The translations under genes were made by a program, and so were the position numbers. Positions 4,308 to 6,758 of a DNA stretch of 7,585 bases are shown in pieces. This DNA is from a virus (lineage: Duplodnaviria > Heunggongvirae > Uroviricota > Caudoviricetes): the IMG/VR virus record IMGVR_UViG_2698536372_000007, positions 1-7,585 of that record. One strand, 5' to 3'. The stretch's first letter is position 1; each line of letters starts with the position of its first letter. The notes under the pieces are model-generated. The model was not told where the DNA came from. It did not search any database and was given only the letters and a program-made list of their open reading frames with translations.

Positions 4308-6758
4308 TCAAAAATCAGCCTGACTCGGGAGCAGTTTTTGCCAGATGGCTGAAACGTATTTCGCCTGGTAACGTGCATCGTTCAGAGCGTTATGGCGTTC
4401 ACCTTCGAATGGAATAGTCGTTCTTGCGTCGAAATCCATCACCAGTCCCAGAGCAACCATCGTTCTTACATCGCGATCATTGGTGTAACGCCACGGGCAG
4501 GGGATCCCCTGCCGTTCATATGAACGGCGTAAAATCACGTTGTCGAAAGTTGCACCGTTACCCCAGACCTGAACAAAAAATTCACCGGAGTTTTCGTCGA
4601 TAAATTCCCGTAATTGCAGCAGTGCATCATCTAACGGGATTTCATCGGTAAGAATGGCGGATTGCGCTTCGCGTGACTGTTTCAGCCACCACTTAATGGT
4701 GTCCCGATCAATGACTCCGCCAGCAGTTTCCAGATCGATAGTTTTGCTGAATTCTGGCCCCATCTCTCCGGTTTGCGGATCGAAAAATATTGCACCTATT
4801 GAGATAATCGGGGCATCAGGATTTTTTCCCATGGTTTCAAGGTCGATCATCAGATGAATCCCCGCTCTGCTGGTGGATGTGAGATTATGATGACCGTTCG
4901 CCTTAATTAAGGGATCTGACGCCTCGCCAGTTTCACTATCGCTGGCATGATGCTGATTGCCGCCAGTGTTCTCCTTGTGCTGATGCGCAGTGCCTTCCAT
5001 TTCCTCCGGATCATTTTCCTGAACTTCAGGCTGATTCTCTTCATCGAATATTTCCTGGTATGTTGCGTCACTTATCACCGCACCACAATCAGGGCAGCTA
5101 CCGCCGCCGGTCTGACCGCAGGCGGTGCAGGCTTTTTCCGGCTCCTGTTTCGTTTCTGGCTCGTTTTGTTGCGCATTTGGGCTGTTTTGTTCCGTTTTCT
5201 GGTCGTTCTGTTCCGATTCTTGCTGGTTCTGGTTCACAGAATCGCAGGTTTCAATCCCCTTCACCCATTTCGGATCATTCGGATCGCTAATCCCTTCAAC
5301 AAATTCACCACGTGATGCAGCAAGCAATTTATCGGCGTCAGGCTGGCTGATATTGGCTGCCTGCATAATTTTGTTTACTTCGTCAGCGGTAACTTTTACC
5401 GGCTCCGGTTGTACGGAATCTTCAGCGGTATCCACATTTTGCGGTAAGTCCGTGTATGTTCCGTTTTTGCGGGCAAGATATTCTTCTTTCGTGATTTCAG
5501 TAGCCCCGGCAGCCAGTGCCTTATCCAGACCAGAAAGTTTGTTTGCGCGACCGTATTTTTCGCCATCCTTGTCGGTGAAGAGGAAGTAGAACGGCCCCTC
5601 ACGCTCTACAGATGGTTCGACTTCCACTTTGCATTCGGTTTTTTCGTTGTCCGGAATTGCCGTTTCCACTGCATCAGTTTCTGGTACTGGCGACGAGAGA
5701 GTATCAGTTGCGCTCTGATTTCTTCCTTCATCTTCAAACACGCCCTTTGTAGTCAGGTATTCAGTAATGTATTTGTTCAGTGCCACAGGGTCTTTGTGAA
5801 TGTCGATCGGACGTTCACGGACAAGGCCAAAAATAGTCTGGCGGCTGTAGCGAAGCGCATCAGGTTGTTTGCGCATTGATGCGGAGATGCGCTTCCAGTC
5901 TTCGCGATCTCTGGCGATAACTTCATTTTTAGCCCAGCGAAGGATGCTGCCGTCAATGTTTCCGGCATCCGCATCACCAGGCCAGAGATAGTAGGCCAGC
6001 TCCCTGTCCAGGGTTTTCCATGTCTGCTTGTATTCGCGATGAATGGCGGCAGTTACAGGAGGGATTTTTTCTGCTGGGTTTTCAGTGTGCTGTCGGTTGG
6101 CTTTGGCGCGGGCAAGATCAACAACAGACGTGTATTTTCCAGTCTCTTTGCGCTCTGCGTCCTGCCGTTTTTTCCAGTTACGTAATTCAGCCTGAATTTC
6201 GGGCCATTTGGTACCCGGCTTACATTTGTGTTTAACCCATCCGATAGCGAACAGTTTGCGTTCCGGATACATAGCTTTAATTTCAGGCGTTTTCATCAGT
6301 GCTTCAACGATATGCCCGTCAAAGGTAGCCACGTCTTCTTGCAGTAATTCCTGCGCGTCAATCGCCATATCAACGGTGATGTTTTCACATGTACCGAACT
6401 TAACCAGGACCGCGTTCTGTACTTCAAGGGACAGCTTGTCAAAATTGACGTTCATCGGATCGGATTCTGGTTCGACCGGAATAAAGGAAGCGGATTCCTC
6501 ATCCCAGCGGTTTTCCTGCATATATTCGGTATCCCAGGAGTCGATAGCAGGGCGGGGCATGCCGGGTTTATCTTCGCAGACAAGAAATTTATAAGCGCAG
6601 TCCTGAGCAGCAGGATATTGCTCCAGGAATTGCCAGGTAAATTTGGCACGGGCGCGGCGTTCATCACCGGCTTCAATGGCAGTGGCTACAGCAACTGCGC
6701 CCTCTTCTTTTATTGCCTGTTCGTCCGGAATGGCGGCGCAAATAAAGACTTTACTCAT
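4308..6758 (-). CDS. Exodeoxyribonuclease VIII-like multidomain protein, 816 aa, with C-terminal DEDDh (DnaQ-like) 3'-5' exonuclease domain
   Basis: ATG 6758 with GAGG 10 nt upstream; TGA 4308-4310. The C-terminal ~180 aa carry the three DEDDh motifs: MIDLET (Exo I), VWGNGATFDNVIL (Exo II), HNALNDARY (Exo III). A central CxxC-x9-CxxC motif (ACTACGQTGGGSCPDCG) is flanked by Q/N/E-rich low-complexity linkers. The N-terminal ~350 aa match what lambdoid prophage annotations label exodeoxyribonuclease VIII; that assignment is from memory only. Confidence 0.9.
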   Translation of the reverse strand: MSKVFICAAIPDEQAIKEEGAVAVATAIEAGDERRARAKFTWQFLEQYPAAQDCAYKFLVCEDKPGMPRPAIDSWDTEYMQENRWDEESASFIPVEPESDPMNVNFDKLSLEVQNAVLVKFGTCENITVDMAIDAQELLQEDVATFDGHIVEALMKTPEIKAMYPERKLFAIGWVKHKCKPGTKWPEIQAELRNWKKRQDAERKETGKYTSVVDLARAKANRQHTENPAEKIPPVTAAIHREYKQTWKTLDRELAYYLWPGDADAGNIDGSILRWAKNEVIARDREDWKRISASMRKQPDALRYSRQTIFGLVRERPIDIHKDPVALNKYITEYLTTKGVFEDEGRNQSATDTLSSPVPETDAVETAIPDNEKTECKVEVEPSVEREGPFYFLFTDKDGEKYGRANKLSGLDKALAAGATEITKEEYLARKNGTYTDLPQNVDTAEDSVQPEPVKVTADEVNKIMQAANISQPDADKLLAASRGEFVEGISDPNDPKWVKGIETCDSVNQNQQESEQNDQKTEQNSPNAQQNEPETKQEPEKACTACGQTGGGSCPDCGAVISDATYQEIFDEENQPEVQENDPEEMEGTAHQHKENTGGNQHHASDSETGEASDPLIKANGHHNLTSTSRAGIHLMIDLETMGKNPDAPIISIGAIFFDPQTGEMGPEFSKTIDLETAGGVIDRDTIKWWLKQSREAQSAILTDEIPLDDALLQLREFIDENSGEFFVQVWGNGATFDNVILRRSYERQGIPCPWRYTNDRDVRTMVALGLVMDFDARTTIPFEGERHNALNDARYQAKYVSAIWQKLLPSQADF

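Follow-up and report, generated by a model that had tools for sequence, protein, structure and literature searches.

The closest described counterparts of the gene discussed here are the recombination genes of lambdoid phages, above all RecE (exonuclease VIII, ExoVIII) of the Rac prophage of Escherichia coli K-12, which is encoded in the early-left operon near xis and int. The N-terminal region of RecE enhances linear-linear recombination (PMC11611040). For the catalytic part, the closest comparison is with T4 DexA (exonuclease A; PDB 8KEL/8KEN), a standalone protein of 227 amino acids (aa) from a virulent phage; its substrate is DNA, and scavenging and intron homing are among its roles (PMC12153337). 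In this study, we describe a gene on the minus strand of a 7,585-nucleotide stretch of viral DNA (positions 1-7,585 of IMG/VR record IMGVR_UViG_2698536372_000007), hereafter the window, whose numbering is used for all coordinates unless another sequence is named. The gene holds the operon place that recE-recT occupies in Rac and exo-bet in lambda, and its 816-aa product is predicted to combine a RecE-type scaffold with a DexA-type DEDDh exonuclease domain. We see roughly an even chance that it encodes a lytic-phase 3'-5' exonuclease of DNA ends that is independent of an annealase and would work on the RecE scaffold with reversed polarity.

By alignment and gene order, the gene is classed as an intact orthologue of ydfE (b1577), a pseudogene of the K-12 Qin prophage. 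K-12 YdfE aligns with aa 1-256 of the window protein at 84% identity (BLASTP, 4e-160), and both genes lie in an operon of the form dicA / ydfABC-dicF-dicB-ydfD-ydfE-int. In K-12, however, IS2E cuts ydfE after ~256 codons and all of the downstream part is lost, whereas the window copy is intact, with a GAGG preceding the ATG of its 816-codon open reading frame (ORF). RefSeq names the same ORF "exonuclease" (WP_009448824.1) in E. coli EH2252, the chromosome of which is 99.9% identical to the window. The protein matches phrog_2082 over its full length (1727 bits), and near-identical database proteins carry PF27430 (YdfE_N) and PF27432 (YdfE_C), which places it in the YdfE family. The family is already in the databases under inconsistent names. 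Automated labels include "exonuclease", "3'-5' exoribonuclease" and "exodeoxyribonuclease VIII", the last of which misnames the catalytic domain. In the literature we found neither a functional study of YdfE nor a paper on a tail swap between RecE and DEDDh proteins. The predicted parts of the gene, all on the minus strand, are as follows.

4308..6758, minus strand: intact ydfE orthologue, RecE-type scaffold plus DEDDh exonuclease, 816 aa; ATG start, stop codon at 4308-4310
6024..6758, minus strand: YdfE_N head, aa 1-245; 84% identity to K-12 YdfE; PF27430; remote homologue of the RecE N-terminal family PF06630
5724..6023, minus strand: helical "mid" module, aa 246-345; common to all family members including RecE (about RecE 271-353)
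5382..5723, minus strand: acidic linker and small insert, aa 346-459; insert at about aa 376-445, "GPFYFLFTDKDGEKYGRANKL..."
5049..5381, minus strand: conserved "RGEFVEGISDPNDPKW" motif, Q/N/E-rich stretch and zinc-ribbon-like element, aa 460-570; ~80% identity to RecE 446-550
5085..5129, minus strand: CTAC-x7-CPDC pair, aa 544-558 (C544, C547, C555, C558); sequence motif conserved in K-12 RecE
4857..5048, minus strand: acidic linker, aa 571-634; RecE homology ends at ~aa 618 (~nt 4905); putative crossover zone for tail swapping
4341..4856, minus strand: DEDDh 3'-5' exonuclease domain, aa 635-806; Pfam PF16473; D639, E641, D739, H789, D794

The alignments indicate that aa 1-618 are homologous to the RecE N-terminal region, with the head, the mid module and the zinc ribbon joined by what appear to be flexible acidic linkers, and that the homology stops where the PD-(D/E)XK nuclease of RecE would begin, so that only the catalytic tail differs. 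BLASTP against K-12 RecE pairs aa 279-618 with RecE 294-591 (E 2e-57), reaching ~80% identity over aa 466-618 with the CxxC...CxxC arrangement kept, and ends just ahead of the RecE nuclease domain PF12684 (RecE 615-850). The RecE equivalog profile NF007259 of NCBIfam aligns its positions 271-603 of 877 with aa 246-619 (E 6e-76), the whole protein scoring 256.2 bits against an equivalog cutoff of 1269 bits. Pfam finds PF12684 in K-12 RecE and not in the window protein. Since the nuclease domain and the equivalog score both fail, the protein is judged not to be a member of RecE/ExoVIII. At the DNA level, in a search of complete E. coli genomes, recE matches only nt 1-195 of the DNA query. The head is more remote: PF06630 has no direct Pfam match on the window protein, and profiles of the YdfE-type and RecE-type heads align over 195 columns (hhalign probability 97.3%, E 2e-11), a similarity below Pfam's own threshold. 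An AlphaFold2 (AF2) model of aa 1-345 gives the head a predicted local distance difference test (pLDDT) value of about 90, and a structure search with this N-terminal model returned no informative PDB fold match for the YdfE_N head. The small insert is found in YdfE-head relatives and is an alignment gap in K-12 RecE. CTAC at 544-547 and CPDC at 555-558 contribute four cysteines that are invariant in 63 distinct relatives; the pair is missing from some DEDDh-tailed relatives.

At the C-terminus, the Pfam match points to an intact DEDDh domain of family PF16473 (Rv2179c-like 3'-5' exonuclease; E 1.1e-65, 221.1 bits against a cutoff of 27, profile positions 2-177 of 177), which is the sole Pfam domain above threshold on the window protein. 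The residues D639, E641, D739, H789 and D794 are invariant in 63 distinct relatives and align with the motifs of T4 DexA, which among solved structures is also the closest match (E 5e-7 from the sequence alone, 3.5e-13 from a profile). DexA differs in standing alone in a virulent phage, whereas the window domain is the last quarter of 816 aa in a temperate phage. Two DexA residues, W152 and D169, are reported for recognition of 5-hydroxymethylcytosine (5hmC), on which W152 is reported to stack. D169 aligns with D775 of the window protein; W152 is not kept and aligns with T759, with W756 nearby, in a segment where the alignment is short. The T759 codon (4482-4484) encodes Thr in the window copy, and five other aligned DEDDh-tailed sequences have Tyr at this place ("PWRYYNDRD").

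The preliminary description of this DNA had recognized an 816-aa ORF with an N-terminal domain, a zinc-ribbon-like CxxC pair, disordered acidic linkers and a C-terminal DEDDh exonuclease of 3'-5' type unlike the lambda Exo fold, and had proposed a Pfam run on the full protein. All of these parts could be located. The N-terminal domain is the YdfE_N head, the cysteines are at the positions given above, and the nuclease assignment agrees with a PF16473 match that preserves the five catalytic residues, with no PF12684, the fold being neither lambda Exo-like nor RecE-like. Two points need qualification. Acidic or Q/N/E-rich stretches of low hydrophobicity do occur at ~aa 340-385, 505-540 and 560-615, an assignment from composition only, and disorder was modelled for aa 1-345 alone, where pLDDT falls to <50 at 222-237. 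The label "ExoVIII-like" is apt for the non-catalytic aa 1-618 but not for the nuclease, where the RecE domain is absent.

The fold also bears on a reading in which the enzyme is an anti-defence or RNA-directed nuclease, destroying immune nucleic acid with a 3'-OH end (the multicopy single-stranded DNA, msDNA, of retrons, or signalling oligonucleotides) or acting on host or phage RNA; an attack on host or defence nucleic acids had been raised, as pure speculation, in the preliminary description. PF16473 is named for its founding member Rv2179c, an exoribonuclease, and a place in an early operon would suit a counter-defence gene; RecE itself reportedly triggers a retron by degrading msDNA. We give this reading only a slim chance: the sole solved-structure match is to DexA, a DNA exonuclease, sequence and profile searches of PDB brought up no other chain and no RNase at E < 0.01, RNase_T (PF00929) stays below its Pfam cutoff, no link to any defence context was seen, and the common RecE scaffold would not be explained.

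How the DEDDh tail came to be joined to a RecE-type scaffold is suggested by a survey of the family, in which aa 1-620 were compared with 1.84 billion representative proteins clustered at 50% and returned 248 clusters only; a preceding protein search had given near-identical E. coli fragments only, and the diversity became visible in the clustered search. Mapping of domains on the long members with phmmer and Pfam resolves two head variants, YdfE_N and RecE_N (PF06630); a core formed by the common mid module; the insert and the zinc ribbon as optional components; and several tails, namely DEDDh, the RecE PD-(D/E)XK nuclease, RecT (in one protein, P0194) and two without a Pfam match. Each of the two heads occurs with each of the two nucleases. 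The clearest junction is in P0136, which matches K-12 RecE at 100% identity over aa 1-355 and at ~80% from there to aa 597, while its C-terminal third is 92-100% identical to the window DEDDh tail over most of its length and 80% in one 40-residue block. The crossover of this natural chimera lies in the common zinc-ribbon/linker region, and the alignments indicate that DEDDh and recE genes swap their catalytic tails by recombination inside the common linker. Synonymous divergence between copies (against L011-L090) is ~0.5 in the head, likewise ~0.5 in the DEDDh domain, and ~0.16 in aa 246-630; the low value would fit exchange by way of the gene's middle part, which seems to be homogenized among prophages and with recE by recombination.

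Several other tails were seen in the survey. P0194 (703 aa) has a RecE head, the mid module and the zinc region fused to a RecT domain (PF03837, E 1e-42, aa 528-678), the nuclease domain appearing to have been deleted in frame. P0126, P0224, P0256 and P0216 share a third tail type (phrog_26058) without a Pfam match and with the motif "LTYxQQLTIAALxGxCANPA" at the extreme C-terminus. The Pfam-less tail of P0129 type (~270 aa) was considered as a Rad52/Sak-type annealase on the strength of the motifs "MRATEIFGPxGxGWG" and "KKSLTDAxKKALSxLGFSAD". This idea is not supported and remains a lead: a PDB profile search was empty, the AF2 model had a pLDDT of only 70, Foldseek gave nothing at E < 1e-3, and hhalign assigned P22 Erf a probability of 0.1% and matched an unverified RAD52 sequence over a 22-column motif only. 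A further idea, that exoD of DLP12 is what remains of the C-terminal part of a YdfE-family protein, was rejected for lack of similarity.

The presence of an annealase appears to follow the type of tail. K-12 RecE, with its PD-(D/E)XK tail, is followed by recT, and P0130, which joins a YdfE head to a PD-(D/E)XK tail, is followed by a 275-aa RecT-family gene (Pfam E 2e-36; no BLASTP match to K-12 RecT). In contrast, P0136 (L008 6001-8418) lies in a Rac-type operon with a racR-like repressor, sieB, kilR and ydaE; xis and int come directly after it, and recT is absent. This pattern suggests that the annealase goes with the PD-(D/E)XK tail rather than the scaffold, which fits the binding of RecT to the C-terminal part of RecE, its nuclease domain, as reportedly found by Muyrers et al. 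2000. At the window locus itself, RecT, Bet, Erf and the annealase families of Pfam and NCBIfam have no match, either within the window or anywhere else in the early region of the matched genome as far as Q. The absence of an annealase from the window, asserted in the preliminary description, is therefore borne out and extends to Q in the same prophage; the region past 7585, where an annealase gene was still conceivable, contains no recT, bet or erf gene.

The same holds in relatives. Among 80 IMG/VR loci, all close relatives whose gene is 87-100% identical, none (0/80) gave a tblastn match to lambda Bet, P22 Erf, any of three RecT seeds, lambda Exo, Gam, the RecE nuclease or the P0129 tail. 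A species-level scan using one genome per species yielded nine loci with a fused scaffold-DEDDh gene, and none of the nine has an annealase within 6 kb. These fused genes were confined to Escherichia, Shigella, Kluyvera and further Enterobacteriaceae, plus one metagenome-assembled genome labelled Veillonella, which is taken to be a mis-binned enterobacterial contig. The RecE N-terminal scaffold, the swapping of tails and the recT genes that follow PD-(D/E)XK tails together explain why no annealase is found. For want of one, the window gene is judged not to be a SynExo/EATR recombinase. Like lambda Red (exo-bet-gam) and other SynExo/EATR systems, it belongs to the early-left operon of a lambdoid phage and presumably acts on the ends of phage DNA, but it comes without annealase or Gam, and its nuclease has an unrelated fold and predicted opposite polarity. 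The operon's only sizeable unknown gene is a 212-aa ORF (phrog_2151; L001 20006-20644, minus strand) ~0.4 kb past the right end of the window, for which Pfam, NCBIfam, PADLOC and PDB gave no match. An unrecognized partner, if the operon has one, could be encoded nowhere else in it.

The gene shows signs of being maintained. The ORF is intact in 74 of the 80 IMG/VR copies, at 811-830 aa, and the ratio of nonsynonymous to synonymous substitution rates (dN/dS) against the window copy is 0.13 in the head, 0.34 in the mid module, 0.31 in the zinc region, 0.63 in the acidic linker and 0.12 in the DEDDh domain, which argues that the head and the DEDDh domain are under purifying selection. Of 5426 complete E. 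coli genomes, 4059 (~75%) contain the DNA of the DEDDh part at >=80% coverage, at up to 8 places per genome. These figures bear on the possibility that the gene is a decaying relic, derived from a recE that lost its nuclease and recT and had them replaced by chance, and now without a function. Damaged copies exist, as that reading would have it: K-12 ydfE is truncated by IS2, Stx2_14040 is frameshifted, the Shigella copy is disrupted, and 6/80 loci have no intact DEDDh ORF. Still, the reading is largely refuted by the selection data and we regard it as highly improbable, given the number of intact ORFs, the low dN/dS of both terminal domains, the invariant catalytic residues and cysteines, the independent joining of the DEDDh tail to two head types, and the prevalence of the DEDDh part.

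If the gene is a lytic-phase exonuclease of DNA ends, its action could proceed as follows. After prophage induction, the RecE-type scaffold would take the enzyme to the DNA ends, or to the partner, that RecE engages, and the DEDDh domain, held on its flexible acidic tether, would strip nucleotides from 3'-OH ends by two-metal-ion hydrolysis. In this way 3' tails would be trimmed or destroyed, not made. Because the RecE nuclease domain, said to be the RecT-binding part, is missing, no annealase would be recruited or needed. The enzyme may act alone or with host or in-trans functions such as RecA/RecFOR, annealases of co-resident prophages and RusA, and its likely job would be the processing of replication or recombination intermediates. 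With respect to RecE, the expected difference is one of polarity, 3'-5' instead of 5'-3', resulting from a DEDDh domain in place of PF12684 and accompanied by the lack of a following recT, while the whole non-catalytic region is homologous and natural chimeras join the two genes. A caution raised at the outset was that a role in recombination was not guaranteed; the ydfE identity, the RecE scaffold, the tail swaps and the recT genes that follow PD-(D/E)XK tails tie the gene closer to recombination modules than this would suggest.

Several considerations weigh against this proposal. The 3'-5' polarity and the substrate of the window protein are inferred from membership of a family whose name-giving member acts on RNA. 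A pro-recombination role is not obvious for a 3'-5' exonuclease, which would destroy the 3' tails that RecA and annealases use, and a standalone E. coli DexA homologue is reported to defend against T4. The 80 IMG/VR loci are not independent of one another, and a novel annealase, for example the 212-aa protein, could be missed by Pfam together with seeds for RecT, Bet, Erf and one further protein.

Standalone homologues of the DEDDh domain, which occur in replication/recombination modules of virulent and temperate phages, offer another view of its role. In Enterobacterales prophages the standalone genes (~190 aa) often take the same int-proximal position; an example is gp32 of phage Lys8385Vzw, which has the same domain with 59% identity to that of the window and, like EcD, stands alone with no RecE-type scaffold. 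Some adjoin Erf or SSB: among 46 standalone loci, the gene lies just downstream of a P22-Erf-like gene in three (L117, L124 and L125) and just downstream of an SSB gene in four (L126 and three more). This suggests that modules of Erf or SSB plus DEDDh exist, and these contexts support a probable role of the domain in DNA metabolism.

Another standalone homologue has been linked to immunity. Plasmid-borne EcD, an E. coli DexA homologue, is reported to degrade T4 DNA and to protect E. coli ("HREX"; PMC12153337), and by analogy the window gene could serve prophage defence or superinfection exclusion, its DEDDh domain degrading incoming phage DNA such as the hydroxymethylcytosine-modified DNA of T-even phages. 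The domain is a DexA homologue that keeps all catalytic residues and has D775 aligned with DexA D169, and the gene is present in 75% of complete E. coli genomes, at up to 8 places per genome. The operon neighbour DicB is also said to protect against some phages. Nevertheless, we consider defence unlikely. EcD is a different protein, as its primers show (start MIDTET, end ...TIPETYD), and it stands alone; the position of DexA W152 is T759 in the window and Y in most relatives; and PADLOC gives the window protein a weak, generic DEDDh match (E 2.6e-4). Furthermore, a repressor-controlled early-left operon beside xis and int is a position for lytic genes and not for a moron expressed in the lysogen, and defence would account neither for the RecE scaffold nor for the exchange of tails with recE.

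The neighbours of standalone genes also call to mind the classical DexA role of nucleotide scavenging, in which host DNA fragments or oligonucleotides would be converted to deoxynucleoside monophosphates (dNMPs) during lytic growth. T4 DexA, the nearest characterized relative, has a described role of this kind; the standalone homologue in Lys8385Vzw adjoins an annotated HD-family hydrolase, and a recurring upstream neighbour of standalone genes (~220 aa) looks HD-like, by eye only. Against this, a RecE-type targeting scaffold of 620 aa would be needless for the clean-up of oligonucleotides, and the head dN/dS of 0.13 argues that the scaffold matters. Temperate lambdoid phages are not known to break down the chromosome of their host wholesale. 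Scavenging is thus quite improbable.

The window gene is the last gene of a dicF-dicB-ydfD early-left operon, at its int-proximal end, before xis and int. The neighbours described earlier were correctly placed, with xis following directly and two genes of ~60 aa ahead (63-aa DUF1482 and 62-aa DicB), and the presence of DicF identifies this early-left operon as one of the dicBF type, as in K-12 Qin. In 75 of the 80 IMG/VR loci, the gene has DicB and YdfD upstream. The other features of the window are listed here.

3998..4240, minus strand: xis, DUF4224 excisionase (80 aa; RefSeq start 4240); Pfam, RefSeq; directly downstream of the ydfE orthologue
3001..4020, minus strand: tyrosine integrase, at the prophage end; Pfam, RefSeq
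6852..7043, minus strand: YdfD-like DUF1482 gene, 63 aa; Pfam, RefSeq; directly upstream of the ydfE orthologue
7040..7228, minus strand: dicB, 62 aa; Pfam, RefSeq
7405..7456, minus strand: DicF small RNA, upstream of dicB; Rfam RF00039, 77 bits against a gathering score of 48
104-373, plus strand: tail-fibre C-terminal fragment, adjacent prophage
490-765, minus strand: hypothetical ORF, 91 aa, adjacent prophage
828-2189, minus strand: type III effector gene espK, adjacent prophage
2578-2718, plus strand: tail-fibre-assembly pseudogene, adjacent prophage

For xis, a mechanical ORF at 3998-4378 (minus strand) starts from an upstream ATG, has 126 aa and would run 71 nt into the exonuclease gene at its 3' end; Pfam and PHROG cover this long form only from residue 46-51 onward, which favours the short form. 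Beyond the window, the early-left operon of the matched genome continues with a 69-aa ORF, the 212-aa ORF, a DUF1391 gene, relBE and the repressor, and the right arm runs from the replication genes through to rusA and Q. The relBE toxin-antitoxin pair (L001 21085-21563, minus strand) lies between the repressor and DUF1391, and in K-12 Qin on the other side of dicA/dicC. Positions 1-3000 of the window are the end of a different, adjacent prophage (L001 8082-14718), the tail-fibre gene of which is interrupted by ISCro1, an IS66-family element, just left of the window. GC content goes down to 36-39% across 2000-3000, consistent with two prophages in tandem.

The gene is among the commonest prophage genes of E. 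coli (~75% of complete genomes), and it belongs to the well-studied dicBF operon. Its scaffold is of interest for RecE as well, since the N-terminal 560-600 residues of RecE have been without an assigned function for decades despite the strong gain they bring to linear-linear recombineering. The same scaffold with a nuclease of predicted opposite polarity, together with near-isogenic chimeras such as P0136, offers a ready means to separate the contributions of the scaffold from those of the nuclease. It is conceivable, though in our estimation improbable, that the N-terminal region of RecE serves enterobacterial phages as a portable module, a DNA-end or recombination hub, to which interchangeable enzymatic tails are attached, the DEDDh version being a distinct, annealase-free system that erases 3' tails. 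If so, this version may steer the replication and recombination of the phage, or it may sabotage the recombination, replication or immunity of its competitors.

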